Below are positions 1,964 through 30,730 of a DNA stretch of 64,000 nucleotides, in pieces. The position numbers were made by a program, and so were the translations under genes. How positions within the stretch are numbered: the first letter of the stretch is position 1; the number at the start of each line of letters is the position of its first letter. The notes beneath the pieces are model-generated. The model was not told the DNA's origin. It searched no databases and saw only the letters and a list, made by a program, of their open reading frames with translations. Source of the stretch: a virus (lineage: Duplodnaviria > Heunggongvirae > Uroviricota > Caudoviricetes); the IMG/VR virus record IMGVR_UViG_2513237361_000012, positions 1 to 64,000 of that record; one strand, written 5' to 3'.

Positions 1964-1977
1964 GTTTTATTTCCTCA

Positions 1978-6414: not shown

Positions 6415-6417
6415 AAA

Positions 6418-13228: not shown

Positions 13229-13314
13229 GCTGTTTCTCCAGTTGCTTTATCAGGCGGAACAGCTGCCGCAAGGGCAGCTGTTCCAGGTACTGAATACTGA
13301 ATCTCTGGGACAGG

Positions 13315-13710
13315 TTAACCAGCAGGTTCATCAGTGCCGCCGCCAGCGGCATCAGTTCGCCCCCGCGTTGCCACCTCCTCAAGCATCTCATCCAGCGCAG
13401 CAGCTTTCGTGCTGATAAGCTCAAGGTCTGCCGGGTGGAGCATTCGCAGCTGTTTCATGTCCAGTGGGCCGGGAATGCTGCCGATGGCCGCAACCTGACG
13501 GCGCATCATCTCCAGCCCCATCAGCACTTCTGAGCAGTAGGCCACCGCCTTTCCGTTCCCGCCCATGACGACGCGTTCTGCGGCCAGTTGCGCATCAATC
13601 ACATCACTGGCAGTCAGTTCGCGCAGCTTCACGGTTTTATGCAGGGTTTCATCTGCCGTGCCTTTGCCGGTCAGAAGCCCGTGTTTCAGTTCAAATTCCA
13701 TTTCAGCCAT
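13315..13710 (-). CDS. Tail assembly chaperone-like protein
   Basis: 131 aa between tail tube and tape measure. Confidence 0.45.
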   Translation of the reverse strand: MAEMEFELKHGLLTGKGTADETLHKTVKLRELTASDVIDAQLAAERVVMGGNGKAVAYCSEVLMGLEMMRRQVAAIGSIPGPLDMKQLRMLHPADLELISTKAAALDEMLEEVATRGRTDAAGGGTDEPAG

Positions 13711-13711
13711 G

Positions 13712-14068
13712 TCACACCTTCACGCATTTTTCACCGATAAAGTTGGCACTGATGGTGCCGGAATCCTCGTCCAGCTCCGCCGGGTTATCCGTGGCGGAAC
13801 CCGTCATCATGTAGTTCAGGCCGTTGTCGCCGTAGAACATCACCGTGACATCTTCCCAGCTGCTGATTTCAATCACGTCCATATCCGCTGCCGCTGCAAT
13901 GGTCACCTTGATGGACGGCGAGGCCATCTTGCTGGAGATGCCCCAGACCTTGCCGCCGCCCATATGCTGGGTGCGGCTGAAGCCGCCCGGGTTCAGCGTG
14001 GATTTCCCCTCGGTTTTAATTTCGCGGCCATTCACGCGAATGGTCGCCATGCCAAGAATTTTTGCCAT
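13712..14068 (-). CDS. Tail tube protein
   Basis: 118 aa directly downstream of sheath gene. Confidence 0.65.
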   Translation of the reverse strand: MAKILGMATIRVNGREIKTEGKSTLNPGGFSRTQHMGGGKVWGISSKMASPSIKVTIAAAADMDVIEISSWEDVTVMFYGDNGLNYMMTGSATDNPAELDEDSGTISANFIGEKCVKV

Positions 14069-14077
14069 GCGGCCCCC

Positions 14078-15553
14078 TTAAAGTTTGAACTGAATCAGGC
14101 CTGCCAGCACACGCAGCTGGTTCACCAGATTCGGGTGGCAGATAAAGTTCAGGCGGTTTTTATCGCTGCTGTCGCGTGTCACCTGAAGCGTGTCCTTGTA
14201 ATCGCTGAAGTTCTCCACAAGGCCCGCCGGGAGAAGTTCGGTCTGGCAGATATCCAGCAGCTCTGCGGTGCACAGCTTCGGCGTCATCACCGGCTGCCCC
14301 GCATCCAGCGAGTCCAGCACGTCATCATCCGCCAGCTTGTGGCGCGGATAACGGTTCGTGAAACGGTTCTTGATGATGTAACGGATACGGCCCAGCGTGG
14401 CTGGTGACTGCACATCCAGGTACGACACATCCGCATCACCGTACTGGTTAACCCGGTACATGGTGATTTCTCGCTCGATGCAGACGTTATCACCGGCGTC
14501 CACCATGTGTGTGGCAATGCCGTCATGCAGCAGCAGGTTACGTTCCGGCATATCCCAGCGAACATTACGCGCAGGCGGCAGAATGCCGGTCAGAACCAGC
14601 GTCTGAAGCGGACGTGCCGGGTCAATGGCGAGGTAATACGCTGCCGTTGCGCCGTATGACGCGGCCCACATCCACGCCGGGTGCGGTGACAGGTTGGTGC
14701 CGATACAGCTAATCAGCCAGTCATTGCGGGTTTCACCAAACGTACCGGTTTCCCCGTGTGTGCCACGAAACGCCGTCCACAGCTGCGCTTCCATCATCTT
14801 GAGCGGCCCCCAGCGGTTCAGCAGTTCATCACGCAGGGTGTTCAGGCTTTTCGTGTCGGTGAACGGGGCGATGATATCGGTAAACCACTCCGGGCCGATG
14901 GCCGCAACGGCACCCGCCATTTCCGGTGTCCCGGTGCCGCCGGTAAACGCGGTGGCTGTCACCTTCACACCTGCCGGGAAGGCTTCTCCGGTGTAGTAGT
15001 TCAGGCGAACGTCGGCACCGTTGCCGGTGACGCCGTGCCAGTTCATGGTCAGCTCCACGGTATCCGTGGCATCATCCTTCACCGCAGCGGCCACCTGCGT
15101 GGCAGGCTTTTTCGTCACCGCATCAGCAATGGCTTTTGCAATGTTTTCCTTCGTGTCCCCGGCGCTCACGCTCACCTGAACGGAGACACCGTTAATCAGC
15201 AGCGCCATCGTTCCGGCCTCAGTCGCTGTACCCAGCACGGTCAGCGTGGCTTTTGCGGCAGCGCCTTCTGGCGCGGCAACCGGCATTGCCCAGGTTTCCG
15301 TGTACGTGTTGGCACGACGCAGCATTTTGAGCATTTCAGCCAGCATCGACCCTTTGCCATAAAGCTGGTCTGCCTGGCTGTCACTGGTGATGCGGGTCAG
15401 TGACAGGGCGTCTGCGCTGCCGGACGATACCGCATGGCCCATGACCAGAATTTTTCGGCTTTGCGCGGATGCACCATCCAGCGCCTGTGAATTGTCGATA
15501 TCGATCCAGACAAGCGGGACGCGGATATCATCAGGAATTGAACCCAGCGACAT
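14078..15553 (-). CDS. Contractile tail sheath protein
   Basis: 491 aa, sheath-like sequence and position ahead of tube gene. Confidence 0.8.
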   Translation of the reverse strand: MSLGSIPDDIRVPLVWIDIDNSQALDGASAQSRKILVMGHAVSSGSADALSLTRITSDSQADQLYGKGSMLAEMLKMLRRANTYTETWAMPVAAPEGAAAKATLTVLGTATEAGTMALLINGVSVQVSVSAGDTKENIAKAIADAVTKKPATQVAAAVKDDATDTVELTMNWHGVTGNGADVRLNYYTGEAFPAGVKVTATAFTGGTGTPEMAGAVAAIGPEWFTDIIAPFTDTKSLNTLRDELLNRWGPLKMMEAQLWTAFRGTHGETGTFGETRNDWLISCIGTNLSPHPAWMWAASYGATAAYYLAIDPARPLQTLVLTGILPPARNVRWDMPERNLLLHDGIATHMVDAGDNVCIEREITMYRVNQYGDADVSYLDVQSPATLGRIRYIIKNRFTNRYPRHKLADDDVLDSLDAGQPVMTPKLCTAELLDICQTELLPAGLVENFSDYKDTLQVTRDSSDKNRLNFICHPNLVNQLRVLAGLIQFKL

Positions 15554-15753
15554 TATTTTTTCCCTCTGGTTTTGTTGTTATTTTTCGTAAGTGTGGTTAT
15601 TTCCACATCTCCCTCGGCTTCACGGCGCAGCCAGTAAGCGCAGACGTCGAGACGTTCCCCTTCCGGAGATAAATGCGCGCCATCCGGTTTACGGACACGG
15701 ACGTTTTCCCGCGCTGGCTTAATCAGTTTCTGTTCCATCGTCACCCCGTACAT
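15553..15753 (-). CDS. Small hypothetical virion-module protein
   Basis: 66-aa ORF in conserved position between head and tail modules. Confidence 0.35.
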   Translation of the reverse strand: MYGVTMEQKLIKPARENVRVRKPDGAHLSPEGERLDVCAYWLRREAEGDVEITTLTKNNNKTRGKK

Positions 15754-16330
15754 GGATCACGTCGTTAATTTCAGTGTATTCACCGCTACGCAGCGTTGCC
15801 CCGAGGCGCAGGAAGTCCGGGAGCGCGGCGAGATCAATCTCTTCATCCAGCTGAAATTCCTGCTCCCACGTCACCGCCCACATGGTGACGCCCAGCCCGT
15901 CGAGGCTGGCGGAGTAAATGTTGTCTGCCCGCACATCAGCAGCCAGGCGTTCAGCCCCCATGCCCCCGGTGGCATCCGACGACAACAGGCGTTTGATCAC
16001 CTTTCCGGCCAGCACTTCACAGCGCACGTCGCGGGAATACCCCCACGAATCCGTCGCCATGATGTAAGCCACCCAGGTGACCAGACCGGACAGTCCGCCG
16101 CGCGGGTTGATATCCCGGACACGCAGGGCAGCTATTCGGATACAGCCGGTACGACCGGACAGATAGCGCTTCACTTCTTCCGGGCTGTTGAACTGGCCGA
16201 TGTGACGCTCCACCACGTCGGCCCGGTCAGGGGTTTTCCCCTGAAGTGCTGTTTTCAGCCAGGCCACAATGCGCTCTGCGGCCGCAACGGTGCTCCCCGG
16301 TGTGCGCAGTTCAGGGCGTTGTTCTGTCAT
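15719..16330 (-). CDS. Hypothetical head-tail joining protein (Mu gp37 position)
   Basis: 203-aa ORF, synteny only. Confidence 0.45.
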   Translation of the reverse strand: MTEQRPELRTPGSTVAAAERIVAWLKTALQGKTPDRADVVERHIGQFNSPEEVKRYLSGRTGCIRIAALRVRDINPRGGLSGLVTWVAYIMATDSWGYSRDVRCEVLAGKVIKRLLSSDATGGMGAERLAADVRADNIYSASLDGLGVTMWAVTWEQEFQLDEEIDLAALPDFLRLGATLRSGEYTEINDVIHVRGDDGTETD

Positions 16331-16872
16331 GGCAGAACCTCCTTCCAGAAATGACTGATAACCTGTTGCAGCTCCTGCTGGTTGGCAGAAGACAGCCCCA
16401 GAAATTCTCGTTGCGGAATGTTCATCATGCGGTTATGTGCGCCGACGGTCTGCCAGACCGGATATTTCAGCGCCCGCCCGAAACACTGCGAGATAAGCCG
16501 TTTGTGGGCGCTGACCGGCACACTGCCGGAAAAGCCGTCATTCATGATGCGGGCATAATCCAGCGGTGAACCGATACGCACCACGCGGTTTTCCACGATG
16601 TACTGGATACTCTCCAGCAGATGGCCTTCACCGCGCAGCAGACTCTGGTTGCCGTGGCGGGTCTTTTTGTACCCGTCAGACCAGTCTGGCCAGCGTTCGC
16701 CACCCGGACTGGTTTTCTCATCGATGATGCGGCGGCGGGTCTGTGATTCCACCACCGCACCGATGCTCTCCAGCAGCTCTGCCTGCAATGAACCATCTGC
16801 CAGCTTTTCAACGGCGCGGCGGATATCCTCCAGACGCTGGTCACCGCTGACCTGTACAGAAATCCCCATCAC
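16327..16872 (-). CDS. Virion morphogenesis protein (Mu G-like)
   Basis: 181 aa, synteny downstream of major head gene cluster. Confidence 0.5.
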   Translation of the reverse strand: MMGISVQVSGDQRLEDIRRAVEKLADGSLQAELLESIGAVVESQTRRRIIDEKTSPGGERWPDWSDGYKKTRHGNQSLLRGEGHLLESIQYIVENRVVRIGSPLDYARIMNDGFSGSVPVSAHKRLISQCFGRALKYPVWQTVGAHNRMMNIPQREFLGLSSANQQELQQVISHFWKEVLP

Positions 16873-17306
16873 AGCACCCCTTTCAGGTTGTTACGGGTGA
16901 ACAGCCGGGCATTGGCACCCACCACAATGATTTTCCCGTGGTCGGTTTCTGCCGGGGTGGCATACGTTGGCAGACCCAGGTCACGGGTGCCGTTCGCCAT
17001 CTCACGCAGGGTTTTAATGGCGTCGTCGTAGCGTTTCTGGATCAGCTCCGTGATTTGATTGTCACGCTCTGATAGCCAGTAAAACGCCAGCGATACCGCC
17101 ACGCGTTGCAGCGGGCGCGGGATTTCCGTCACCCCCAGCGGCAGCTGGTAGCGGCGGGACAGAAACGAATCAATTTCCGCTTCGGCATCACTGATGGCCT
17201 GACGGATTTTGTCTTCATCCAGTTCGTTGGTTTCCCGGTTAATCGCCATGTTCCAGACAAGATTGCCGTCCGCGCGTAACAGGTCTTCCTGCGTGATATA
17301 CCCCAT
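16869..17306 (-). CDS. Hypothetical head protein (Mu gp36 position)
   Basis: 145-aa ORF, synteny only. Confidence 0.45.
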   Translation of the reverse strand: MGYITQEDLLRADGNLVWNMAINRETNELDEDKIRQAISDAEAEIDSFLSRRYQLPLGVTEIPRPLQRVAVSLAFYWLSERDNQITELIQKRYDDAIKTLREMANGTRDLGLPTYATPAETDHGKIIVVGANARLFTRNNLKGVL

Positions 17307-17617
17307 CAGCCTTTCTCCGCTTCCCGGACAATCAGATTCGGCTCTGCCATCAGGCGGGTGGCAACCGCAGCGGTCACCGCCACATCCTCACCGGCATGTG
17401 ACCAGAAACGGCCACAGCGCCAGAACCCGTTTTCAGACACGGCCCGGACGTTCAGCCGGACAGGGGCGTCACCCTGTACAGTAACCGGGTCTTCAGCCGG
17501 ACGTGGTTCATTCGCCTGACCGTCAGCCACAATAACGTCTGCCAGCGGTGCCGGGTTTTCCTGTGCTGCGCTGTTCTTTGCGGCTTTCGCGCCTTTGGTT
17601 CCTGCTTTTTCACTCAT
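17306..17617 (-). CDS. Hypothetical head-associated protein
   Basis: 103 aa, Ala-rich, directly downstream of major head gene. Confidence 0.4.
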   Translation of the reverse strand: MSEKAGTKGAKAAKNSAAQENPAPLADVIVADGQANEPRPAEDPVTVQGDAPVRLNVRAVSENGFWRCGRFWSHAGEDVAVTAAVATRLMAEPNLIVREAEKG

Positions 17618-17698
17618 GACTCTGCCTTTTAAAAGGCAGTTAAAAGGGCATTCACAGCGCCTTTTAACTGCGGGTTACAACAGATTACGGATGACGGG

Positions 17699-18601
17699 TT
17701 ATGCCGGGGTGGTGATGAACGGACTGACCACGATGTCCACATCCTTGTACCAGATGTTGGAATCGCCGCCGTTAACCAGCATGGCGTCAATGATGCGCTT
17801 CGCGGCTGCACGGTTTTTCGGCCCCACCACAAGGGTGGTCGGGCGGATGCCCAGCGGTTCACCGTTGGTGGCCTTCATACCCAGCAGCAGATTGCTGGCC
17901 TTCTCGTAGTTCTCCGCTGTCAGTGCCGCACGGGAACCGACGGCGGTCTGCCAGAAGCCGAAGCCCGCATTGCAGCGACCGTCCACCCCGTAAAGGAACT
18001 CGTTATTCTTGAAGGTGTGCTCGCTGTTCAGATCATCCAGGGCTTCAAACTTAAAGGCGCGTCGCGTCTGCCAGATGATGGGTTTCAGTACCTGAGAATC
18101 ATCAATCAGAAACCACGGTTCCCCCTGGTCTGATGCCGGGGTGCCGACAACGTTGCTGTATGTGCCGTCGCCCAGCGGGTGGTCTTCATCAAAGAAGTTC
18201 TGACCGTCAAAACACAGGGTGTTAAACCCGGCACACAGCAGGGGGTAACACAGCTTGTCCGGGAACTCCGACGTCTGGCGGCCATAGCGTTCAGCGATAA
18301 TGCTGTACTGACCAATCTGATCGTCTTCAATGTGTTCGCGTTTAACGCGGATCGAACTTTCCCAGGTTTTGTTCGCAAGGGTGTAACCATAACCGTCCAG
18401 CGTTGCCATCTGACGGGCGCTGACCCATTCCTTAATCTCCGGTAAATCTTTCATCCAGCCGTAGGTATTGGAGGCGGACGAACTCGGGATTTCAGAGGCG
18501 ATGCGCTGCCACTGTGGGGTGACACCACTCAGCCCACGGGTATAAGCGGCGCTCAGACAGGTGGTCAGCGCGTGAAGGACTTCGGAAGTGACTGCTCCCA
18601 T
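17699..18601 (-). CDS. Major head (capsid) protein, Mu T-like
   Basis: 300 aa, located after protease/scaffold gene. Confidence 0.75.
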   Translation of the reverse strand: MGAVTSEVLHALTTCLSAAYTRGLSGVTPQWQRIASEIPSSSASNTYGWMKDLPEIKEWVSARQMATLDGYGYTLANKTWESSIRVKREHIEDDQIGQYSIIAERYGRQTSEFPDKLCYPLLCAGFNTLCFDGQNFFDEDHPLGDGTYSNVVGTPASDQGEPWFLIDDSQVLKPIIWQTRRAFKFEALDDLNSEHTFKNNEFLYGVDGRCNAGFGFWQTAVGSRAALTAENYEKASNLLLGMKATNGEPLGIRPTTLVVGPKNRAAAKRIIDAMLVNGGDSNIWYKDVDIVVSPFITTPA

Positions 18602-19563
18602 CAGTTATTCTCCTGTTTCGGTTTAGCGGCGAGGAACTCTTCCCCGGTAATACCCATGCTGCGGCACATCGCCAGTTCGGCGTCGGTCAGTGTCTGCGCG
18701 GGTTTATCCTTGCCCTGGCTGGGCTTGTCGTTGTTCACCAGCGGCTGTGCACCTTTGGTGTATTCCGCAAACTGTTTGCGGCCTTCTTCCGTGCGGCAGG
18801 TGGCAAGGAACATGTCACGGTTTGCCGGGGCCACTTTTCCGGCTTCGATGGCCGCATCCACAAGCGCTTCTGCTTCCTTCTCCTCCAGTTGCTGAAGGCG
18901 TTGTTCTGCGGTTTCGGCACGGTTCAGTGCCAGATTGTGGGTTTCCACCGGTACAAACTTCGTCAGGTCAGGTGTCTGTGCGCGGTTCAGCGCCACCTGT
19001 TCGTTCTCCTGAAGTTGTTTAATGGCAGCCACGGTATCGTCCACCGTGGCAGATTCAGCCAGCCCAAGCAGGCCGGTGATTTGCACAGGTACTGTCATCG
19101 GGTTTTTCTCCGTATTCAGTGCAGGAAAGTCCAGGTTAGGTTTGTTGGTCAGCCCGACGCTGGACAGGCGCGTCACCACACCCTCCGCGTCAAAGAAAAA
19201 CGCCGGGCTGTAATAGCGGTAACGGCGTTCGCTCAGCATCCACCGGGCGTACTCGCTCCAGACAACACGGCCTTCAATGGTGCCGCTGTCCGTCACGCGC
19301 AGTTCTTCCACCCAGCCATACGCCGGGGCTTCATCACCGCGTTGCCCTTTAATTTCGGTGGCGTGTTCAATGTCCACCGGAATTTTGATGTCGGACGAGC
19401 GGGTGACCACCTCATGCGGATTGCGGTTAATCCACGTCCGGCCATCGCGCCCGGTGAACTCACCCGCAGGGACGAGTTCAAGCCATTCCGGCAGTTGAGC
19501 AGGTGTCAGCTCAGGGATGGGTTCTGGCAGGGAAAAACACAGCGCCAGCAGTTCCGGTTGCAT
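18601..19563 (-). CDS. Head protease/scaffold protein, Mu I-like
   Basis: 320 aa with coiled-coil C-terminal half, upstream of major head gene. Confidence 0.7.
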   Translation of the reverse strand: MQPELLALCFSLPEPIPELTPAQLPEWLELVPAGEFTGRDGRTWINRNPHEVVTRSSDIKIPVDIEHATEIKGQRGDEAPAYGWVEELRVTDSGTIEGRVVWSEYARWMLSERRYRYYSPAFFFDAEGVVTRLSSVGLTNKPNLDFPALNTEKNPMTVPVQITGLLGLAESATVDDTVAAIKQLQENEQVALNRAQTPDLTKFVPVETHNLALNRAETAEQRLQQLEEKEAEALVDAAIEAGKVAPANRDMFLATCRTEEGRKQFAEYTKGAQPLVNNDKPSQGKDKPAQTLTDAELAMCRSMGITGEEFLAAKPKQENN

Positions 19564-19610
19564 GTCAGTCTCCGTCGTTTGGGGTTACCGACGGTAAGTA
19601 TGCGGAAGGC

Positions 19611-19641
19611 AGAAAAAAAGCCGGATTTACCGGCTTCACTG
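19611..19641 (-). terminator. Rho-independent terminator-like hairpin
   Basis: AAGCCGG-ATTTA-CCGGCTT stem-loop followed by T-run on minus strand; identical element at 27343-27372. Confidence 0.5.
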
Positions 19642-19776
19642 AAAACGGGGAAATACCCCCTTCAAAACCCCTTCAAAAACGCCACAGCATCTTCAAAAAC
19701 GTCAGAATGCACATTCACGCCATCAGAATAAAAAACGCGTTTCTGATGCGTTTCAGGGGGATTTACGGCGGGAGGG

Positions 19777-20540
19777 TTACTCACTGTCAAAACGGGCCTG
19801 TTTTGTCGCCAGCTGGCGCGCCAGCTCCTGCTCACGGTTTATGCCGGGATTGTAGTTCCAGCCCGGATCAATCCCTTCCGGCACATCTTCCTCTTCGCCC
19901 GTGCGTTTGTTCACCCAGCGGACAGTTCTGATTTCCGGCGCTTCGGTGTGAATGGTGCCCTGTGCCGCCAGTTGCGCATATTCACCACGGCTGACCTGAC
20001 GGATGGTGCATTTGCAGCCCCAGCCGTTAGGGGCGAAATGCGTCTGCCAGAACGGGTGGTCTACAGGCAGACACAGACGCGCCCATTTCACATGCTCCGC
20101 CCGGTGGTCGCGGGATGGCCCCAGCTCGTAAATCAGATACGGCATGGCCCGCTTTGTCCGTTGAATGCGTTCCCACTGGCCCGCCGCGCGGGCGGTGCGC
20201 ATGTTGGTATCGTAAATCGTGCGGAGGCGGCGGTCGCTGCCCAGCTGTACGGTTCGGGTTTCGCCCGTCAGCGGATCATCCATCTCCTGTACGCCCCACC
20301 ATCCGCGTTTTATCAGCAGCGGTTGCAGCGCCTCCCGGAACTCGCTGAACGTCTGCCCGCTTTGCAGGGCGTCTTCCACAAGGGCTTTCACATCCGACAA
20401 CAAATCCAGTTGCAGCATTTTTGCCACGGTGAAGCTGTTCCGGTGTTCTTCCCGCCATACATCCCGGTAATCAAAACCGGGGCGCAGCTTCTTCGCCTTC
20501 AGCCACGCCAGCGCCTCTTTCGGGATGAGAGTTTCACGCA
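19777..20540 (-). CDS. Head morphogenesis protein, Mu F-like
   Basis: Downstream of portal gene, Mu F-like; start taken at MRETLIP. Confidence 0.65.
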
Positions 20541-22104
20541 TGACCGGTGTCCCCCAGCGCACGCGCCTTAAAGCACACCTCCGCCAGTTGCAGGGCAAAG
20601 TCGTCCGCGTTCAGCGTTTCCTGAAGCTCAGGCAGGCGTTTCAGAAAGTCATCAAAACTGTCGCATTCCTGCGCCAGTGTCAGCACCGGGTTCGTGAACG
20701 CCTCGCCGGTTTTCTGCCAGTCACGCAGGGCATCATCCACCATCTGTGCCAGTTCATCGGGGTGTTCCCGGTTCAGGGCGACGCGCTCGCGGTTCATCGC
20801 CACATCACCTGACATTCCGGCAGACACCGGATGCAGAACATCAGCCCCGTCGTCCGGTTCAGCCAGGCCGAACCGGTCCCGCAGCTCCGATTCCTGAACC
20901 CGCATCCCCCGGTCAATCAGCGGCACCAGAGCATCTGTCAGCGCCTTCAGATCTTCCGCTTCACTGATACGCAGAACAACACGGGGGTAGTGTTCCTGTG
21001 GCCCGTAGTTGGCCTCGATGTAGGGCCGCACCAGATATTCATTCAGCGTGTTAGCCAGCTGCCGCGCGTCCCAGCGCACAATGTCCATGCGCACCTGATT
21101 GTGCACGTCCGCCTGTGAACGCGAACTGCCGTTATCCGTGGTCATGGTCTGCCCCAGCACAGCCTTACTGATTTGCGCATCACACCATTCCGCCATTTCA
21201 CGGAACAGTGCGCCGCCGTTATTCCGGCTGGCGGTTTCCTTCATTTCCAGTTGCATGGACTGCGGAATGGCACACCCGGCATCCGAGGCAATGGAAGCAA
21301 TCGCATCAATCAGCACGCGGATTTGCTCCTCCGTGGCGTTGGGGCCGTATTTCCCCACCGTGACCGGAATGCCGAATTTTTCCGCAAATGCCCACCAGTC
21401 GCGCACGGTAAAGGATTTCAGCATGTACATCACCGCCACCAGACGGGCCAGACCGTTACGCAGCGGCAGACCGGATTTCAGACGCGGCTGGTGAACAATG
21501 AATTTTCCCGGTGTCAGCGGTACGCCATCCACCGGTTCATCGTCAGTCAGCAGGCGGAACTGGCGCAGCGTGGGTTTTTCGGCTTTCAGAAAACGGGGAT
21601 CAACCCACTCATAATCACGGGGCACCCAGTGGTTGTTGCGGGTGTTCCACAAAATTTCACAGACCGCCACGCCTTTTCCCAGCCCGTCGAGCAGATCAAA
21701 CATCAGCTCAGGGATTTGCGGTGCCTCCATCAGTGCACGGATGGCGTCCGCCAGTTGCACGTCAGCATCGTCATCACTGGCGGCCACCACCACCGGTTCG
21801 ATACCCGCCACCGTCAGCTTGCGGGTGCGCAGTACCGAGGCGTAATGCAAATCGCGTTCTTCCATCTCTTCAGCAAGGTAAAAAAATCACGCGTGATGCC
21901 GTCAGTAGCATTGCGCAGAATGCCTGCCAGCCTGCCGGGGTTCAGCCCGGAGGCGACGCTGATACCCGGCGAGGCCGAACGCACACCGGCATGACGCGGA
22001 CGGGCCTGTGCTTCGTTGAGCGCCTCTTTTTTCAGCGTGTCTTCCTCACCGGTTGCCGGGTTCAGCAGACGGCGAACGGCCCCGGCCAGTTGTTTCAGGT
22101 TCAC
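20534..22104 (-). CDS. Portal protein gene, apparently split by a 1-nt frameshift
   Basis: N-terminal 96-aa ORF (21814-22104) and 443-aa ORF (20534-21865) are in different frames; one extra T in the T7 run (A7 on plus strand, 21880-21886) would fuse them. Confidence 0.7.
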
Positions 22105-23636
22105 AGTAAACCTCCCTCATTTTTCAGGCCGCGCGTCAGCTTCATCTGGCGGCGCGCGTTGCGTTCTTCCGGTTTCGCCGGGCGGTTCAGGCGGTGCAAC
22201 TCGTAACGGTGGCAGTCATCCTTGCTGGCAAGGAAGCCCAGGAAAATGGCCACAGCGGCGTCGCCGTGACGTTTGTGACCGTCGCTGCCTTTGGTTCGTG
22301 AATCATCAATGCCGGGAACGCCACGCAGTAACTGAATGGCTCCGAGGTCATTGATCACGTCTTCATGCTTCGGAAGGATCAGCTCATCATCTTCAAACGC
22401 CGCACGGAAACGGGGCATGTTTTCGCGGTAAAACGCCACGGACAGCATCACCTGTTCCACTTCATCGCCGTACCGCTCTGCCGCCTGTTCTGCCAGATAC
22501 TGACCATTCCCCCGCGCATCCATTTTGATGCCGTCACGGCGGGGCAGACGATCGCAAAGCCAGAACAGCACCTGCTCCTGCTGTTTAAACGGCACATTGC
22601 CAAGCTCAACCAGGAACGGCACCTCGCGGGTGGTGTCATCGTTCACCGTCACCGGGGCCAGTACGGTCAGGTCACCCGAACGCGCAAAGTCTTCCCCCAG
22701 ACAGTGGCGCAGGTTCTTCGGGAGTTTTTCCAGTTCAGGGCGCACCACTGTTTCCAGCCATTCCCGGATATCTGCCCGGCGCTGGCTTTCCGTCAGTGCG
22801 TTAAATTCCGGTGTGCCGGTAAAGCGCAACACTTTCCCGGTGCCACGGGCCGCACGTTCACGCAGTGAGCGGGGGATATACGTGCCGCCGCCGTTTTTCG
22901 GGACGCAGTAATACTCCTCCAGCGCGTCTTCGCGGGTGGCGGTATTTCGCAGCAGGCCTTCTTTCCATTCCGCCTCGGCTTCCGGTGACCACACCATGCC
23001 GCGCACCTGACAGATACGTCGGTACAGCCCGTCATTGCAGGCGTCGTCCAGCGTGATGGTGTGAATGCTGTAATCTTTTTTGCCCGCGCGGCTTTCCTGA
23101 ATAAGCTGATTAAACAGGTTGTCCACGCCGTCATGGGTGGAAATAAGGCGAATTTTGCCGCCCCATGTTTTCAGCGGCAGCACCGCCTTCAGCAGCTCGT
23201 CCAGTTTTTCATGGAACGCGGCCTCGTCGATGGTGACATTCCCCTGCATCCCGCGAATGTTGCTCGGGTTGCTGGACAGTGCCTTGACCTTAAAACCGCT
23301 GGCGAAGTACACGACGAACGTCAGAATGTCCTTGTCTTCGTCGGTGATCACTTCCTCGCAGATTTCTTCCGCTGCCGCATTAAACGCTTTCGCCCACATC
23401 GCCACGGCGTCGATAAATTCGCGGGCCATCTCCTTATTCGAACCGATATAAAAGTGATCGCGCCCGCCGTCTTCCTTCTTCAGCGATGCCGTCAGTGCCG
23501 CATCTGCCGCCTCCGCCCAGGTTAAACCGGTACGGCGGGATTTCTCGGCGATTTTCAGGTCGGCATCATCCGCCACCCAGCGTTTCTGATACGGCAGCAG
23601 AACATCATATTCACTGAACGTGTCCATTTGTGTCAT
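22101..23636 (-). CDS. Terminase large subunit
   Basis: 511 aa, terminase-like, upstream of portal. Confidence 0.8.
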   Translation of the reverse strand: MTQMDTFSEYDVLLPYQKRWVADDADLKIAEKSRRTGLTWAEAADAALTASLKKEDGGRDHFYIGSNKEMAREFIDAVAMWAKAFNAAAEEICEEVITDEDKDILTFVVYFASGFKVKALSSNPSNIRGMQGNVTIDEAAFHEKLDELLKAVLPLKTWGGKIRLISTHDGVDNLFNQLIQESRAGKKDYSIHTITLDDACNDGLYRRICQVRGMVWSPEAEAEWKEGLLRNTATREDALEEYYCVPKNGGGTYIPRSLRERAARGTGKVLRFTGTPEFNALTESQRRADIREWLETVVRPELEKLPKNLRHCLGEDFARSGDLTVLAPVTVNDDTTREVPFLVELGNVPFKQQEQVLFWLCDRLPRRDGIKMDARGNGQYLAEQAAERYGDEVEQVMLSVAFYRENMPRFRAAFEDDELILPKHEDVINDLGAIQLLRGVPGIDDSRTKGSDGHKRHGDAAVAIFLGFLASKDDCHRYELHRLNRPAKPEERNARRQMKLTRGLKNEGGLL

Positions 23637-24235
23637 GCGCTAATCCCCAGAATTTCACGTTTGATGGTGTCAGCCGCACCGCCCGACAGACCGCCCGTTC
23701 TGACCAGCTCTTCGGTTTTCTCTGCCATCTCCTGCGCAAACGCATCGCGGATCGCTTTCTCGCGTTTATGGCTGGTCATGGCTGCCACTTCCAGACGCTG
23801 GGCAACCAGCGCCAGTTGGCCCAGCGCCTTCGGTGCAACAGGTTTGTCGTCTTCTGCCATCGACATGGACGTTTCAAAGGCCAGCGTTTTTACAAACTCC
23901 ATCAGCAGCTTGCCGACGTCTGATGTTGGCGCGGAACCCAGCTTTGCCGCCCAGACTTCGGCCATTTCGCGGGAGGCACGGATTTTTGCCCCGACTTTTT
24001 CCATGCGGATGGCGTAGCGGTTTAAGCCCGTCCGGCTTAACTGCATCTCTTCCGGCAGGTTATGTTCGTCAATCAGGGCATTGATGGCTTCGCGGATTTC
24101 TTCCTGCGTGTGCCGCTTTTCCCGCAGCATCTGATGCAACTGCTCCCGGATGCTGTCCGGGAGTAAATCCACTTTGGAAAGACGGCCACGGGTGGGGCGT
24201 TGTTCATTTTCCATGTGTGCGCTCCTGTTGCTCAC
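23633..24235 (-). CDS. Terminase small subunit-like protein
   Basis: 200 aa immediately upstream of large terminase. Confidence 0.6.
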   Translation of the reverse strand: MSNRSAHMENEQRPTRGRLSKVDLLPDSIREQLHQMLREKRHTQEEIREAINALIDEHNLPEEMQLSRTGLNRYAIRMEKVGAKIRASREMAEVWAAKLGSAPTSDVGKLLMEFVKTLAFETSMSMAEDDKPVAPKALGQLALVAQRLEVAAMTSHKREKAIRDAFAQEMAEKTEELVRTGGLSGGAADTIKREILGISA

Positions 24236-24350
24236 TACGCTGTAAACTTTCGTATGCAGATTTCAGTGCGCCGTTCTGGATTTCCCGCCATGTCGGTTGT
24301 GCGCCAGACGGCGGAGTTCATCACGGGACGCTTTACTTATCGGATTCTTT

Positions 24351-24650
24351 TTACGGTTCACGACGGCCCCCGTCTTCAGTTCCCGGTGTTTTCAGACCGG
24401 CGTATATTTCTTCGCGAACGGAGCGGATATCCTTACCCAGCAGCTTCCACAGCCGCGCACATGCCGGTGATGAACGCAGGGCACGTTTCATGGGGGTATC
24501 CGGTGCATCCGGGTTCCAGGGCTTTCCGGTCTGTTGTTCATATGCACGGGCGATGGCGTTTTTCTCAATATCCGCGAGCACAAGACAGTACGCCAGCTGC
24601 CGCACGACGGCCCGTTCTCCGCGACTTAACGGCTTCAGTTTTCGGGCCAT
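24351..24650 (-). CDS. Hypothetical protein
   Basis: 99-aa ORF between lysis-region genes and terminase. Confidence 0.35.
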   Translation of the reverse strand: MARKLKPLSRGERAVVRQLAYCLVLADIEKNAIARAYEQQTGKPWNPDAPDTPMKRALRSSPACARLWKLLGKDIRSVREEIYAGLKTPGTEDGGRREP

Positions 24651-24652
24651 GC

Positions 24653-24946
24653 TCAGTCCCTCGCACGGGGTTTTTTAACGCCCGGAACGCTGGACAGGCC
24701 GTTTGCCACATCCTCGCCGCTGCCGGTGATTTCAGCCACGTAACAGCCGCCCACATCAGACAGACGAACCAGCCCCTGCTCGCGCAGCCATGCAAGCTGG
24801 GTGCGCACCACATCACGGGATACCTTATGACCGTAGGCCTGAAGGCAGGTCTGCAACACGGATTCATTCGCGCTGTCGCCACAATCCAGCAGGGAACGCA
24901 GCAACACCAGACGACGGTCTTCAGTGAGGATCTCTTTCATCGCCAT
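24653..24946 (-). CDS. Hypothetical protein
   Basis: 97-aa ORF, tightly packed with neighbours. Confidence 0.4.
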   Translation of the reverse strand: MAMKEILTEDRRLVLLRSLLDCGDSANESVLQTCLQAYGHKVSRDVVRTQLAWLREQGLVRLSDVGGCYVAEITGSGEDVANGLSSVPGVKKPRARD

Positions 24947-25251
24947 TAATTTTTTTCCTTTAACTCGTTCTCTAATAACAAATCGCTGATGCGGGATACC
25001 TGGCGGATGGATGGCCCCAGCTCTTTGATTTCTCCCCGCAGGTTGCTGATATCCAGTTGCAGGCGGTGGAACTCATCACGATCAGGTAGCTGATGTACCT
25101 GGCTTTCCATCACCGACACGCGGGAACGCAGCAAATCAAACTCTTCGCGCTTGACGTAGGTCTTTGCCAGAATCAACTGAAGCAGGTTTATTCCTGTCAT
25201 CAGCAATGCCCACAGAATGGGCCAGTTGGCTCTGATCATTTCCCAGGACAC
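24946..25251 (-). CDS. Hypothetical membrane protein
   Basis: 101 aa with N-terminal hydrophobic helix. Confidence 0.4.
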   Translation of the reverse strand: MSWEMIRANWPILWALLMTGINLLQLILAKTYVKREEFDLLRSRVSVMESQVHQLPDRDEFHRLQLDISNLRGEIKELGPSIRQVSRISDLLLENELKEKN

Positions 25252-25463
25252 GTTTTCCTCCTGCGTTCCCGCATCTGCTGACAGTCAATACAGGTCACCA
25301 CATCCGGCAGCGCCGCAAGGCGCTGTGCCGGAATAACGTTCCCGCAGTCATTGCAGAAGCCCCGGCTGTGGGGCGTTTCTTTTGTCCGTGTCTGCCAGGC
25401 TTTAACGACGCTCTGACGCTCGTTCAGAACCACTTCACTGATGCGATCGATTTCGTCGGTCAT
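25236..25463 (-). CDS. TraR/DksA-type zinc-finger protein
   Basis: C-terminal CxxC...CxxC (CNDCGNVIP...CIDCQ) pattern, 75 aa. Confidence 0.55.
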   Translation of the reverse strand: MTDEIDRISEVVLNERQSVVKAWQTRTKETPHSRGFCNDCGNVIPAQRLAALPDVVTCIDCQQMRERRRKTCPGK

Positions 25464-26071
25464 TTCGGCCCCGCAGACATTTTGTGACGGCTTGATTTGC
25501 TGTAACGGGCAAAGCCGTCAAGGGTTCTTACACCGAGATAGCCCAGCGCCGGGGTAAGCAACATCAGCGTGATATCCCAGTCCGGTGATGGCATATGCAG
25601 CGTGATACCTCTGGCACCGGCAATGGCTCCGGCAATCTGGCCGCAGGAGAGCAACAGCACATAGGCCAGACTGCTGTAACAGGAAAGGCGGGCCAGCAGC
25701 GGGCGTGTCTGGCGCACATAGCTGTCCGTGGCGTTGTCACCATTGCGGATGGTTTCCTGCTGTTCGTGGTGTGCGGCCTGCTGGTCAGCCAGCACTAGCT
25801 TCTGCCGTTCCACCTCCAGCTGTTGCAACTGAATTTTCAGGGTTTCCATCTGCATCAGTTGCTCCGGTGACAGCATCACCAGTTTTTGTTCCAGAATGCG
25901 TTGCTGTTCAGCCACCGGCAGGCTTTCCCGGACACTTTCCACCATACCGGCCACCGAGTCAGCGGCGGCAGATGTGCTGCCACCAAACCAGCGCCCGACG
26001 GAACGAATCAGCCCCGGCCCGGCTTTCAGCAGAACAGAGGCGATGCCTGAAAGGGTTAACGGATCCACGGG
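25460..26071 (-). CDS. Putative lysis-associated membrane protein (start uncertain)
   Basis: Hydrophobic segments at both ends with central coiled coil; downstream of endolysin. Confidence 0.4.
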   Translation of the reverse strand, partial: PVDPLTLSGIASVLLKAGPGLIRSVGRWFGGSTSAAADSVAGMVESVRESLPVAEQQRILEQKLVMLSPEQLMQMETLKIQLQQLEVERQKLVLADQQAAHHEQQETIRNGDNATDSYVRQTRPLLARLSCYSSLAYVLLLSCGQIAGAIAGARGITLHMPSPDWDITLMLLTPALGYLGVRTLDGFARYSKSSRHKMSAGPK

Positions 26072-26466
26072 AAACCTCCATACAGATAACGCTGAAGACA
26101 GAGCAGACCGCCGCAACTGCCACCGCACAGCCAGAACACCGGATGCACCGGTGACATCATCATCAGCGTGCTGAAGACGCAGCAGAAATATCCCAGCGCC
26201 CAGACCACCCATGACCACACGATGATGTGGCGACCAAAAGCCCGGTAACGGACCTCAGGCAGCAGGCGAAATGGCACATTCCCGAGGCTTGCGCTGTATG
26301 AAAACAACACCACCCCGGCAAAGGACAACAACATCAGCACGAACGATCGCCAGCCACATAACATGCTGATGATGAACATGCAGAGTGTCAGTCCGGCCAG
26401 TGGCCACGGCGTTCTCATCAGTCGGGAACAAAGCAGCCAGTCACACAGTTTTAAAATTTTGTTCAT
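26056..26466 (-). CDS. Putative holin-like membrane protein (start uncertain)
   Basis: Multiple predicted transmembrane helices, Cys/Trp-rich, close to endolysin. Confidence 0.4.
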   Translation of the reverse strand: MNKILKLCDWLLCSRLMRTPWPLAGLTLCMFIISMLCGWRSFVLMLLSFAGVVLFSYSASLGNVPFRLLPEVRYRAFGRHIIVWSWVVWALGYFCCVFSTLMMMSPVHPVFWLCGGSCGGLLCLQRYLYGGFPWIR

Positions 26467-26692
26467 TACCTTTTTCCACATTGAATTTTTCCCTGTACTT
26501 CTGGCACTGCCAGAAAATGTCCCGTGTATCCACGGAGTTCCAGCCACGCATGTAGTAGCTGGCGTGTGTGCCATCATGGCCGGTATAGTCCAGCGGTTTC
26601 GGGGGCGGGCCTCCGGCCATGCGGTGCAGAACCTCCTGACGCAGGCGGTCACGCCGCCCGGTTTTCAGTGAGGCATCCCAGCCTTTGCCCAT
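26441..26692 (-). CDS. Hypothetical protein
   Basis: 83-aa ORF directly downstream of endolysin. Confidence 0.35.
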   Translation of the reverse strand: MGKGWDASLKTGRRDRLRQEVLHRMAGGPPPKPLDYTGHDGTHASYYMRGWNSVDTRDIFWQCQKYREKFNVEKGNEQNFKTV

Positions 26693-26693
26693 A

Positions 26694-27290
26694 TCACCCC
26701 CGCGTGGCGGACATGATGCCCAGAGGGGTATCGATGATTTCCAGACAGGCGTCGGTCAGTTTTTCCATGCGGTTAAACCAGCCGTTCAGGTATTTGCCCT
26801 GGGCGGGTTTTGATTTGATGATGTCGGCATAAAAGCGGGAACGACGGACAATGCAGCGGGCCAGCAGCCAGTCCGGGGAGGACAGGCTCACGGCCTTGCG
26901 GGTACGCGGGCCGATGATGCCGTCAGCATCCACATCAGCGGCTTCCTGCAAAATCCTGATGGCTTTTTTAACGCCATGCTGAACCGCCGCATCGAACACA
27001 AACATCGCCACGCCATCAGGCCACTGGTCACATCCGGCAGGCAGCCAGTAATCGCGCCAGTAAATCTGCGCAACCTGTTCGCGGGTTAAATCCTTAATGC
27101 GGGTATCCGGTTTGCCGTCACCGTTGACATCGGTTTTGCCGTCAATCACACCGTCGCGGCGGTCAGAAATGCCGTATTTGGTTTCACCGCCGCTGTCTGT
27201 GGGGTCATTGACATAGCCGCCTTCAATATCAGGACGCAGAATAAAATTCAGCGCATGTTCAAAGGCCGGGGAGAATTTTTGATTTTCCAT
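26694..27290 (-). CDS. Endolysin, GH108-type muramidase with peptidoglycan-binding domain
   Basis: N-terminal EGGYVNDPTDSGGETKYGI motif characteristic of GH108 lysozymes; sits downstream of mor. Confidence 0.7.
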   Translation of the reverse strand: MENQKFSPAFEHALNFILRPDIEGGYVNDPTDSGGETKYGISDRRDGVIDGKTDVNGDGKPDTRIKDLTREQVAQIYWRDYWLPAGCDQWPDGVAMFVFDAAVQHGVKKAIRILQEAADVDADGIIGPRTRKAVSLSSPDWLLARCIVRRSRFYADIIKSKPAQGKYLNGWFNRMEKLTDACLEIIDTPLGIMSATRG

Positions 27291-27342
27291 AAAAGCACCT
27301 GTGAAGCAGATTTAAACGTGGTCTGCTTCATGGTGCCGGAGG

Positions 27343-27372
27343 CATAAAAAAAGCCGGATTTACCGGCTTCAT
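27343..27372 (-). terminator. Rho-independent terminator-like hairpin
   Basis: Same AAGCCGGATTTACCGGCTT hairpin plus T-run as at 19611-19641, directly after mor. Confidence 0.5.
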
Positions 27373-27375
27373 TGA

Positions 27376-27825
27376 TTAAGGGCGTCGTGGCGGACGACGA
27401 ACGGGATGAGGCAGATTCGGGGAGTGGTAAAACAAATCCGGCTGGTATTTATTACGCTCCAGACGTCGCATCCGTTTGATGGCCTTGTAGACAGTTTTAT
27501 ATGTCACTCCGTAACGCTGAACCAGTTCAGGAATATTATGGCCGTTAAAATCACGCCAGATACGCATATCCCGGACAAGATTCTCCAGAATATTCCCCCT
27601 CGGAACATAAACCTGCATCCCGCCGATATGGCGACAAATCGCCACAACCAGCTCAAGGGAATGGGCAGGGTCTGCGCCAATCCGGGCCAGCTCTTTACGC
27701 AGCAGTGCGTTCAGTTCAGAAAGTAACGCCGGATAAGCGGTGTTTTCCTGATAATCATGAAGGTATTCCAGAACGCTGTCGTCCCGGAGGTCTTCGAATA
27801 AATCCTGCTCTTTCATCTGTTTCAT
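27376..27825 (-). CDS. mor: Middle operon regulator Mor-like
   Basis: 149 aa, position after gemA, Mu Mor-like. Confidence 0.65.
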   Translation of the reverse strand: MKQMKEQDLFEDLRDDSVLEYLHDYQENTAYPALLSELNALLRKELARIGADPAHSLELVVAICRHIGGMQVYVPRGNILENLVRDMRIWRDFNGHNIPELVQRYGVTYKTVYKAIKRMRRLERNKYQPDLFYHSPNLPHPVRRPPRRP

Positions 27826-28373
27826 ACAGCAATTCTCCCGCTGTTTCGTGCGCGGGCATATGCACTGGTCATTGCATCATAGCCGCGCAGTTCCCGCCCG
27901 GTTTCGCTCACAGGTAAAGGCACACCATGTCGGACAAAGGCTTCCCGGATGCAGCGCATATGCCACTGTTTGAGCGTTTCGAGCACAACATGCAACGATT
28001 CCCCGTGACACCAGGCCAGCGTGGAAACACCCTGACCACCATTACGTCTGGCCGTCAGGCGTTCAACGTATTTGTCCAGCGCGGCGTCGCTGATATCGGA
28101 GACGAAACCATCAAGAAACATCTGCTGCCAGATTTTATAAATCTTCTCGCGCGGTGTGACATGCTCCTTAAAGCGACGGCGGGGATGTTTTTTCTGCTTC
28201 TTAAAACCGCGCTCTTTCATGGCATCGAGCACCTGTTCCAGTTGTGCGACAGTCAGTTCGCGGCAACTGGTCTTGCCTGTGCACTGCACCAGAAAGGCGC
28301 GGTAAGTGTCATCGTCGAGTTGTAGATCACGACGGGCAACATGAATTAACTTAATAAGCGATGTGCGACTCAT
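27822..28373 (-). CDS. gemA: GemA-like protein (Mu gp16 family)
   Basis: Resembles Mu GemA by recall; start taken at MSRTSLIK, the ORF-track N-terminus being AT-rich extension. Confidence 0.6.
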   Translation of the reverse strand: MSRTSLIKLIHVARRDLQLDDDTYRAFLVQCTGKTSCRELTVAQLEQVLDAMKERGFKKQKKHPRRRFKEHVTPREKIYKIWQQMFLDGFVSDISDAALDKYVERLTARRNGGQGVSTLAWCHGESLHVVLETLKQWHMRCIREAFVRHGVPLPVSETGRELRGYDAMTSAYARARNSGRIAV

Positions 28374-28403
28374 TTTGTCACCTCTCATATTAAGGAATGA
28401 GAT

Positions 28404-28808
28404 ATGAAAATTGATTACGATGAACTGGCAAGAATCCTTGATACTTTCCTGAATGCAGACAGCGCATTTATTACCCTTAAGGATGTTGGAATCGACACAA
28501 CCGACGATGAAGATAAACTGATATTTCATTTATTACTGCTCGTCGAAAATGGTCTTATCGGTAACAGAGAACTGCAAACTGGCACCCCGGAGTGCATCGG
28601 TCTGAAGTTCACCACAACAGGTATTGGCTGGCGAAACGTACCAATAAGGCTGACTCAGGACGGACATGATTTTGCCAATGCATTGCATCAAAAACCTATT
28701 CTTGAACGAATCAAAAAAGAATTTGCCGAAGCCCCGTTTGATGTTGTCAAAGACCTCGGCAAGGGGTTTTTAACTCAGTTATTTAAAAAGAAACTCGGTA
28801 TTGAATAA
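28404..28808 (+). CDS. Hypothetical protein on opposite strand (AT-rich moron)
   Basis: 134-aa ORF with RBS-like AAGGAATGAGAT upstream; lower GC than surroundings; only plus-strand gene in the early operon. Confidence 0.5.
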   Translation: MKIDYDELARILDTFLNADSAFITLKDVGIDTTDDEDKLIFHLLLLVENGLIGNRELQTGTPECIGLKFTTTGIGWRNVPIRLTQDGHDFANALHQKPILERIKKEFAEAPFDVVKDLGKGFLTQLFKKKLGIE

Positions 28809-29081
28809 CTCCTTACTCATTCGCTGTAGCACATCAAGGGCGGCAACTGCCGCCACTTTATCCTGACCGGCAATGATTTTTCGTAATTCCTCAATAATCC
28901 AGGCATGGCTTAATGATTCAGCAATCATCGTGCGTTTTTCTGAAATTAAATTTTCTCTGGCCTGCTCATAGTGCTGGTATACAACATTATCCAGAAAATA
29001 ATTTACATCTTGTTCTGACATGCCACTGGAAATTAAGGTTGCAGCCATTAAATCAGCATCAGTAATCATCTGTATTTTCAT
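28779..29081 (-). CDS. Hypothetical protein (AT-rich moron, convergent with 28404-28808)
   Basis: About 100-aa ORF, low GC, 3' ends of the two genes overlap by about 30 bp. Confidence 0.4.
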   Translation of the reverse strand: MKIQMITDADLMAATLISSGMSEQDVNYFLDNVVYQHYEQARENLISEKRTMIAESLSHAWIIEELRKIIAGQDKVAAVAALDVLQRMSKELFNTEFLFK

Positions 29082-29256
29082 TTCGTAATACCTCTTCGCA
29101 ATAAAAGACTTCATTGGGATAACGTTTTTGTATGCGCTCCATCACCTGCATACATGCCTGCTCTGTGGGCCAGATTTTTTCCGTTACCGGAATGGCATCG
29201 CAGGCATCATTCCCACAAGTGCCAACCAGCAGGACAAAGCCAATTGACTTAATCAT
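29059..29256 (-). CDS. Small putative exported/lipoprotein
   Basis: MIKSIGFVLLVGTCGNDAC: signal-peptide-like N-terminus with Cys, about 65 aa. Confidence 0.4.
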   Translation of the reverse strand: MIKSIGFVLLVGTCGNDACDAIPVTEKIWPTEQACMQVMERIQKRYPNEVFYCEEVLRNENTDDY

Positions 29257-29788
29257 GCTCGCTGATTTCCTGTGTTTCCGCCGGAACCGGTGAATAATCA
29301 AGAATGAGATAGCGCAGGACGTGGTCGGTGATATTCCAGCCACTGGAACCACAAATAAAGCGCCCCAGCCGGATATCGATATACGCCATCACAAAACGGG
29401 GCATCCCCTGTTTGCACATCTCGTCATCCACTTCAGCAACGATGTAAACCGACTCGCAGGTCAGTACGCCTGTCGCAAATTCTTTTGCCAGTGCCGGAAT
29501 GGCATTGCCTTCCAGCCAGGGCAAAGAGCGGCGGAACGCGCACCATTGAGCATCATCAACAGCGGGGTGCTCCGTTGCGTTTCGTCTTACAGGAGGCGTC
29601 GGACGAGGGCGCGGAACGTCATAAAATCCGTTGCATTCAGTGAGAACTCCGGCATCAACCGCATCACGCAGGAAATACACCATTGAGGAAGGTGGCATCT
29701 TCATTTTTTCAGCCAGAACGCCACAGGTCAGACGCCCGTAACCCCGTAGTAATGTGCTGACACCGTTCAGAATTTTTGCATCAATCAT
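29249..29788 (-). CDS. Hypothetical early-region protein
   Basis: 179-aa ORF immediately downstream of gam. Confidence 0.45.
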   Translation of the reverse strand: MIDAKILNGVSTLLRGYGRLTCGVLAEKMKMPPSSMVYFLRDAVDAGVLTECNGFYDVPRPRPTPPVRRNATEHPAVDDAQWCAFRRSLPWLEGNAIPALAKEFATGVLTCESVYIVAEVDDEMCKQGMPRFVMAYIDIRLGRFICGSSGWNITDHVLRYLILDYSPVPAETQEISEHD

Positions 29789-29885
29789 TTTTATTTCTCA
29801 GATATCAGATTCAGGCGCGAGCAATCCCCTGACGCATCGCGCCATAATTAAAAGAAAGTGAATTAATTAAATATTCGTGGTGGTA

Positions 29886-30410
29886 TTAAATACCGGCTTC
29901 CTGTTCAAACGGAATAATAGAAAAATCTTCAATACCTGATTTGACTGTAATTCCGGCAACACCTGCGACCGCTTTCGGTTCCAGTAAAATCGCTTCCTTG
30001 TTGATTTCCTGTTTCGTGCGAATAAAGCGTTGCAGGCCAAGACGCTCCAGCGTTTCCATCACCGCATCCACACCGCGAATACTTACCGATGGTGGGCGCT
30101 GACGCCATGACACATCACCGGTTACCAGGTTTGCCGTCTTCACCTTGCCGCCGTTCGTCAGTTCGTCACGGTTCGCTTCACACCACCCCTGAACGCCTTT
30201 TGAAAGGGTTTCAATACTGGTTTTAAGGGGTGCAATCTGTGAGGCGTATTTCTCCGTAATCTCAGCGATAGCGTCATTCATCTCCGTTTCAAGCCGTGCC
30301 GCTTCGCGTTGCAGGTCACCAATCCGGCGAATATCACATACCACGGCATCGCGGGATTGTGGAACATAAGCCGCTGCGGCGTTCTTGATTCGTTTTGCTG
30401 GTTTAGCCAT
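29886..30410 (-). CDS. gam: Gam host-nuclease inhibitor (Ku-like DNA end binding)
   Basis: 174 aa, near-identical over its length to phage Mu Gam as I recall it. Confidence 0.85.
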   Translation of the reverse strand: MAKPAKRIKNAAAAYVPQSRDAVVCDIRRIGDLQREAARLETEMNDAIAEITEKYASQIAPLKTSIETLSKGVQGWCEANRDELTNGGKVKTANLVTGDVSWRQRPPSVSIRGVDAVMETLERLGLQRFIRTKQEINKEAILLEPKAVAGVAGITVKSGIEDFSIIPFEQEAGI

Positions 30411-30430
30411 ATAAATAAAGCTCCTGTTAA

Positions 30431-30730
30431 TTAATATTCGCTGTATACAATGCTGGATACAGCACGATTGCTTAATTCCATCTTTTGGGCTATCACATGA
30501 ATAGCCACCCCTTCTTTATAAAGTTCACGACACAAATATTTGTCGTGCTCACTGACCCGGTATGCACACAACGATATTCCGTGCCTTCTGGCATGTGCCT
30601 GTAGGGCGGTTGGGGCAACGTTCAGTTTTTTCGCCATTTCCTCGACGGTCATTTTTCCGACACTGGCTTCGATAAATTCCCGGTCTTCGCGTGACCAGCG
30701 TTTACGCTTACACATCATTCCGGTCACCAC
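30431..30730 (-). CDS. Hypothetical small DNA-binding protein
   Basis: 99 aa with helix-turn-helix-like segment. Confidence 0.4.
   Translation of the reverse strand: MVTGMMCKRKRWSREDREFIEASVGKMTVEEMAKKLNVAPTALQAHARRHGISLCAYRVSEHDKYLCRELYKEGVAIHVIAQKMELSNRAVSSIVYSEY

Follow-up and report, generated by a model that had tools for sequence, protein, structure and literature searches.

Split portal gene in a Mu-like prophage

We analysed a stretch of 64,000 nucleotides (the window; all positions refer to it) that carries a Mu-like transposable prophage. In the head module of this prophage, two minus-strand open reading frames (ORFs) of 96 and 443 amino acids overlap in different frames, as the original prediction had described; the overlap measures 52 nt. 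The features at this locus are the following.

20534..22104, minus strand: portal gene, a frameshifted pseudogene (gp29/gpH homologue, DUF935/Portal_Mu), assigned from Pfam, PDB portals and annotated relatives
21814..22104, minus strand: N-terminal fragment ORF, 96 aa, with a GTG start and a TGA stop at 21816..21814
20534..21865, minus strand: C-terminal fragment ORF, 443 aa, with its ATG at 21865
22101..23636, minus strand: intact terminase large subunit (TerL) gene, 511 aa (PF03237)
19777..20541, minus strand: gene for a Mu gpF-like head morphogenesis protein of 254 aa, counted from its ATG at 20541 (PF04233)

In the 96-aa ORF, 75 native portal residues precede 21 out-of-frame ones and the TGA, and the 443-aa ORF corresponds to residues 81–523 of the intact portal. 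When both were compared with the intact 523-aa portal of the E. coli RM11911 prophage, residues 1–75 of the first fragment matched residues 1–75 of that protein, and the second fragment was identical to residues 81–523 at 440 of 443 positions. Because both fragments are collinear with this one intact portal, they are pieces of a single gene and not a chance pair of ORFs. Restoring the lost T, whose position is described below, yields a continuous portal of 523 aa. Adding one T to the neighbouring T7 run fuses the two ORFs as well, as had been predicted, and the continuous protein that results has 523 aa, close to the earlier estimate of about 530.

The GTG start of the portal gene overlaps the TerL stop and is preceded, seven bases upstream, by a strong Shine-Dalgarno sequence (GAGGGAGG). 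The ATG of the 443-aa ORF has no usable ribosome-binding site, since the GAAGAG in front of it directly abuts the start codon. At the other end of the gene the gpF start overlaps the portal stop, and gpF therefore normally needs both translation and transcription through the portal gene.

Identity of the gene and its homologues

The repaired protein matched the Pfam family Portal_Mu (PF06074) over residues 77–414 with a score of 353.3 bits (E 1.9e-105), for which the family cutoff is 23.9 bits. Most of this signal resides in the second fragment: the 443-aa product alone scored 348.5 bits and keeps profile positions 7–336 of 336, and the 96-aa product alone had no Pfam match. Two portals of known structure in the PDB, 9khx_X (512 aa) and 8rka_A (phage JBD30 gp32), aligned with the repaired protein continuously across the junction, from about residue 37–51 to about residue 426–476 (E 1e-50 and 3e-49, respectively). 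Judged by its length, 9khx_X is likely to be phage Mu gp29. Pfam searches with the neighbouring genes, together with the annotation of relatives, gave the order gp27-like, TerL, portal, gpF, protease/scaffold and gpT. The bit score far above the cutoff and the fitting head-module gene order thus bear out the earlier identification of the gene as a Mu-like portal.

At this place the relatives are annotated with a single 1572-nt DUF935 coding sequence. The intact portal of the RM11911 type (WP_052924209.1, 523 aa) resembles the window in its DNA (98.8% identity over the region), in its gene order and in its T7 run, and the protein identity is 99% on both sides of the lesion. The intact E. coli DUF935 genes have a T after T7-A and one frame of 1572 nt, whereas the window lacks that T and is split. 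The structurally characterized homologues, 9khx_X and JBD30 gp32 (8rka), share only moderate identity with the repaired protein; they are intact and build virions, whereas in the window the chain is broken after residue 75. Instead of the single chain of about 510–525 aa that includes the N-terminal wing segment, the window has a 100-codon frame and a separate 443-aa ORF. By sequence and synteny, then, this gene belongs to the Portal_Mu family, and without the single chain it is a pseudogene of that family. Homology to 9khx and 8rka suggests that the intact protein would form a dodecameric ring at one capsid vertex. The JBD30 portal fold comprises a crown, a wing, a stem and a clip; its N-terminal residues contribute to the wing, and Arg13/Arg18 and Lys38/Lys44/Arg47 form wing rims that contact the packaged DNA and the inner capsid surface (PMC11445458).

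Position of the lost base

To locate the lesion, we aligned the window with eight relatives, namely seven E. coli prophages (91–99% identical) and Klebsiella phage Kp4866-3 (70%). Two positions are relevant here.

21886..21880, minus strand (plus-strand A7 at 21880..21886): T7 run, unchanged with respect to relatives in the alignment
between 21879 (A) and 21878 (C), minus strand: 1-nt deletion, relatives A-T-CC, window A-CC

The relatives read GAT TTT TTT ATC CTT GC and the window reads GAT TTT TTT A-CC TTG C. The portal gene shows no other indel with respect to RM11911. The result was the same in a wider set of independent relatives, composed of E. coli genomes together with contigs from IMG/VR (18) and from metagenomes (6): T7-A-T-CC was present in all 38, and wherever the locus of a relative includes the complete gene, the frame runs uninterrupted for 523–527 codons, counted from stop to stop. 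A T8 run was found neither among the 38 relatives nor in any other dataset examined.

These results modify the original prediction of a single-base frameshift in a homopolymer. The frameshift is real in the window, but it does not lie in the homopolymer, as T7 is the ancestral length (38 of 38) and the lost T is an isolated base. Two findings that the prediction had named as able to refute it, two separate genes in related phages and reads confirming A8 (T8 on the coding strand), had no counterpart in the data: the relatives all have one continuous frame, and no dataset shows A8/T8. The ancestral protein reads RDFFILAEEM, and a repair to T8 would give RDFFYLAEEM (I76Y). Judged from these sequences, the T8 repair is a frame-restoring substitute and not the ancestral state. 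More generally, a frameshift beside a homopolymer need not be a homopolymer-length error; in this case, setting the window beside its relatives shifted the lesion one base, and the independent assemblies described below showed that it is real. Annotation of the TW09308 prophage should record its portal gene as a frameshifted pseudogene whose lesion is at A[T]CC, outside the homopolymer.

Occurrence of the deletion in independent read sets

The window is 100% identical to contig AEME01000001.1 of assembly GCA_000208565.2, which represents strain TW09308 of Escherichia cryptic clade V, isolated from fresh water in Michigan (PMC7716201). The same T7-A-CC deletion, with the same split into 96 and 443 aa, was found on Logan contig SRR29904084_713009 (6149 nt). 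This contig aligns to the window with no gaps and with three substitutions (17446, 17482 and 17567), two of which are variants present in other relatives. Given the three SNPs, the contig is not a copy of the deposited assembly. A contig from a second run, SRR29904083, encodes the same 96-aa product followed by an ORF that starts at the same offset. The deletion thus occurs at the same exact position in independent read sets and is absent from all relatives.

The SNPs of the SRR29904084 contig all cluster in its last 170 nt (equivalent to window 17396..17567), which suggests that the prophage is a recombinant or that the sample contains several related prophages that break the assembly graph. 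The contig number 713009 suggests that the two runs are metagenomes; a literature search with both accessions returned no paper. If what was sequenced in these runs is TW09308 itself, the base call is confirmed by them, but a spread of the allele in nature is not. In a contig scan of species-representative genomes for both alleles, the prophage was absent.

Proposed consequence for the portal and head assembly

Overall, we consider it very likely that the portal gene of the TW09308 Mu-like prophage has become a pseudogene through the real loss of one base. With the isolated T one base downstream of the conserved T7 missing, ribosomes that start at the GTG would translate 75 native residues before leaving the frame at codon 76, and would terminate 21 codons later. 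The 443-aa ORF would be poorly translated because GAAGAG abuts its ATG and leaves it with no ribosome-binding site of its own. Even if made, its product would contain nearly the whole Portal_Mu domain but no N-terminal wing segment. With this segment lost and no internal ribosome-binding site, little or no functional dodecameric portal is expected.

The early termination may also act beyond the portal itself. Rho-dependent polarity is the general basis for lower expression after early termination, and here a stop about 1.3 kb before the natural one would probably lower the expression of gpF and of the downstream head genes. Procapsid assembly is nucleated by the portal, which also serves as the packaging channel; the prophage is therefore most likely unable to make filled heads. 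It should be defective in head assembly and in DNA packaging, so that loss of portal function and of virion production would be the expected outcome, and the original prediction that no particles can form is to that extent reasonable; if the lesion in the gpN-like gene described below is real, tail function would be affected as well. Proteolytic processing, which the Mu portal (gpH) reportedly undergoes, could lend plausibility to a portal that is short at its N-terminus, and a literature search on such trimming gave nothing usable. When phage content or inducibility is scored in cryptic-clade Escherichia, this prophage should be treated as probably defective.

Slippery heptamer next to the deletion

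In the upstream frame, the T7 run reads GA[T TTT TTT] ACC and thus forms an X_XXY_YYZ heptamer (U_UUU_UUU) that is in register and lies inside the ORF overlap, with the deletion directly 3' of it. The −1 frame opens exactly at the heptamer, as a TGA at 21889..21887 is located just upstream. From this register and the open −1 frame it follows that a −1 slip, or a transcript with U8, would give a full-length I76Y portal. Portal position 76 aligns to Asp in 9khx, which indicates that this position varies within the family.

In E. coli, U_UU.U_UU.U supports more than 0.10% frameshifting without a stimulator, the background being about 0.055% and motif-to-background ratios reaching up to 10 (Sharma et al. 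2014, PMC4066793). According to the same study, the motif belongs to the efficient H_HH.U_UU.Y class when a stimulator is present, and UUUUUUU is prone to transcriptional slippage and to indels (PMC4066793). We found no downstream stimulatory structure, as the 60 and 100 nt that follow fold less stably than shuffled sequences (z of +0.69 and +1.32, respectively), and inspection by eye of the 25 nt upstream of the heptamer showed no Shine-Dalgarno-like element. The two-frame arrangement is conserved in none of the 38 relatives. The locus thus shows only one of the three features that mark a programmed −1 frameshift site, the heptamer, and lacks both the stimulator and conservation; nothing here is programmed. 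At most, the site may allow trace adventitious read-through or occasional T7-to-T8 revertants, of which none was seen in the datasets.

Known −1 sites, such as those of dnaX and IS911/IS3, and the correction of frameshifts by a “savior indel” likewise have a heptamer in register at the start of the overlap (PMC5009743, PMC4066793). The window differs from them in that it has no hairpin or pseudoknot, its split is not conserved and its ancestor was unsplit, so that the likeness is one of mechanism only.

Alternative explanations

The original prediction had left the choice between a homopolymer sequencing error and an inactivating mutation. The mutation is favoured by the independent contigs that share the deletion, and an error in the homopolymer itself is contradicted by the T7 run of all 38 relatives. 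In a wider form, the same doubt would be that the genome really has the T (or a T8) and an intact portal, and that the apparent split was introduced by the 2011 draft assembly. Such an error would be understandable beside a 7-nt homopolymer, since some platforms miscall bases neighbouring homopolymers, and the same prophage contains two more unique 1-nt deletions for which there is no independent confirmation (see below). However, the homopolymer has the length seen in all intact relatives, the missing base is not homopolymeric, and the identical deletion occurs in contigs assembled independently from two other runs, one of them three SNPs away from the window. With the lost base outside the homopolymer and the deletion present in independently assembled reads, a sequencing or assembly error is very unlikely. 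An even less credible explanation, which we regard as extremely improbable, is a naturally split, two-subunit portal, in which the 96-aa product and the 443-aa product would both be translated and would come together in trans as a working portal. The near-complete Portal_Mu profile retained by the 443-aa product (positions 7–336) and the persistence of the split allele in more than one dataset would agree with it, but the portal is a single chain in all 38 relatives and in both solved homologues, there is no ribosome-binding site for the internal ATG, and the last 21 residues of the first ORF are out of frame. Moreover, the split is what the simple loss of 1 nt would produce in a gene that is otherwise 99% identical.

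The remaining alternative accepts the deletion and questions its effect. If the defect were leaky or reversible, three routes could supply enough full-length I76Y portal for some virion production: −1 slippage of ribosomes on U_UUU_UUU, slippage of transcription to U8, and reversion of T7 to T8 in some cells. The register of the heptamer is right, the −1 frame opens at this point, and the slip product would differ from the ancestor by a single residue at a family-variable position; the published behaviour of the motif, with more than 0.10% frameshifting without a stimulator and a slippage-prone U7, points in the same direction (PMC4066793). Yet one portal needs 12 subunits, and with neither a stimulatory structure nor a Shine-Dalgarno-like element the expected yield is about 0.1–0.5% of normal. 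The T8 allele is absent from every dataset examined, the split arrangement occurs in no relative, and the gpN-like gene is frameshifted too in the TW09308 assembly. We therefore judge a leaky defect to be unlikely. The more far-reaching proposal, that the slippery run buffers the deletion and that the prophage keeps a low, switchable capacity for making heads through ribosomal, transcriptional or replication slippage, appears to us slightly more doubtful still. If true, the adjacent heptamer would make the portal defect leaky, which is the only mildly interesting angle of the locus. The reading that we retain is inactivation of the portal gene by a genuine deletion.

The prophage, its insertion and further frameshifts

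The portal pseudogene is part of an element whose outline and additional lesions are listed here.

307..36253, minus strand: entire transposable prophage of the Mu-like type (35,947 bp) within ybjI, for which other clade V genomes show the empty site
302..306 and 36254..36258: 5-bp target-site duplication, ATATC on the plus strand (GATAT on the minus strand), recognized from empty ybjI sites
10099..11372, minus strand: gpN-like DNA circularization gene, frameshifted by a unique 1-nt deletion near 10354
about 24225..24383 (approximate), minus strand: small ORF of 52 aa, frameshifted by a unique 1-nt deletion near 24295

The 695-aa transposase of the MuA type matches PF02316 and PF09299, and the corresponding prophage of RM11911 is annotated with a transposase, an AAA ATPase, Mor, Gam and Mom/Com. 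With its 5-bp duplication and its MuA/MuB-type proteins, the element is a Mu-like transposable prophage. In the other clade V genomes with an identical YbjJ that we examined, ybjI is uninterrupted, which shows that the insertion is strain-specific. Its restriction to this strain, its intact ends and the target duplication make the insertion look recent, which is awkward beside three accumulated frameshifts.

Several other properties of the element were recorded. The interrupted gene, ybjI, encodes a HAD phosphatase. The prophage termini are 5'-ATGAC...CTTTA-3', unlike those of Mu, which are TG...CA. Motifs of the form TTCAAGATA are repeated at both prophage ends and are probably transposase-binding sites. 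At the right end of the prophage there is a mom/com-like DNA-modification module (window 433..1170 and about 1170..1400) that is 92% identical to that of RM11911.

In the gpN-like gene, the relatives read GGCGGCGG or GGCAGCGG and the window reads GGCGG-GG, which splits the gene into ORFs of 359 and 83 aa, compared with 424 aa in relatives. In the 52-aa ORF, the relatives read AACCTGACA and the window reads AACC-GACA. This hypothetical ORF sits between the gp27-like (DUF3486) gene and a 99-aa gene and is not called in all relatives. Both deletions were judged unique by comparison with RM11911 and about 10–25 other relatives, and neither falls in a homopolymer. Independent read support was found for neither of them: the lineage-specific neighbour proteins occurred only in the TW09308 assembly, and the look-up of widespread neighbour proteins returned longest contigs only. 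For the gpN deletion the choice lies between a second genuine inactivating mutation and a fault of the assembly, and the frameshift in the 52-aa ORF could likewise be an assembly error. The two further frameshifts fit prophage decay. All other structural genes of the prophage have the lengths seen in relatives.

Defective and cryptic prophages likewise have a one-base indel in an essential morphogenesis gene together with more lesions in the same element. The TW09308 prophage does not differ from them in any essential respect, its only peculiarity being that the portal lesion comes right after a slippery heptamer. The portal frameshift is thus a routine case of prophage gene inactivation in a well-known family and a well-populated Mu-like group, and is of an already known kind. 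As a separate observation, E. coli 06-00048 has two related copies of a Mu-like prophage, one on plasmid pCFSAN004178P_01 (136-kb record) and one on the chromosome. In the copy on pCFSAN004178P_01, TerL and gpF are annotated as frameshifted and the portal is intact.

Neighbouring retron prophage

A P2-like prophage occupies the window from about 38800 to 64000 and carries a reverse transcriptase of the retron Ec67 type (about 49513..51342). When compared with the copy in E. coli NCTC8623, the window is one base longer at 47305 (T8 against T7), at 47630 (A3 against A2) and at 49556 (T7 against T6). The difference at 49556 falls in the 5' part of the reverse transcriptase frame and shifts its predicted start, giving 609 aa from a GTG in the window and 626 aa in the annotation of NCTC8623. 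These differences are probably homopolymer errors in one of the two assemblies, that of the window or that of NCTC8623. This prophage is about 99.9% identical to the NCTC8623 copy, whereas the adjacent genes ybjI, ybjJ and rcdA are only about 90% identical. The disparity between the prophage and its flanking genes suggests that E. coli and clade V Escherichia have recently exchanged the retron phage, with integration at the same site.
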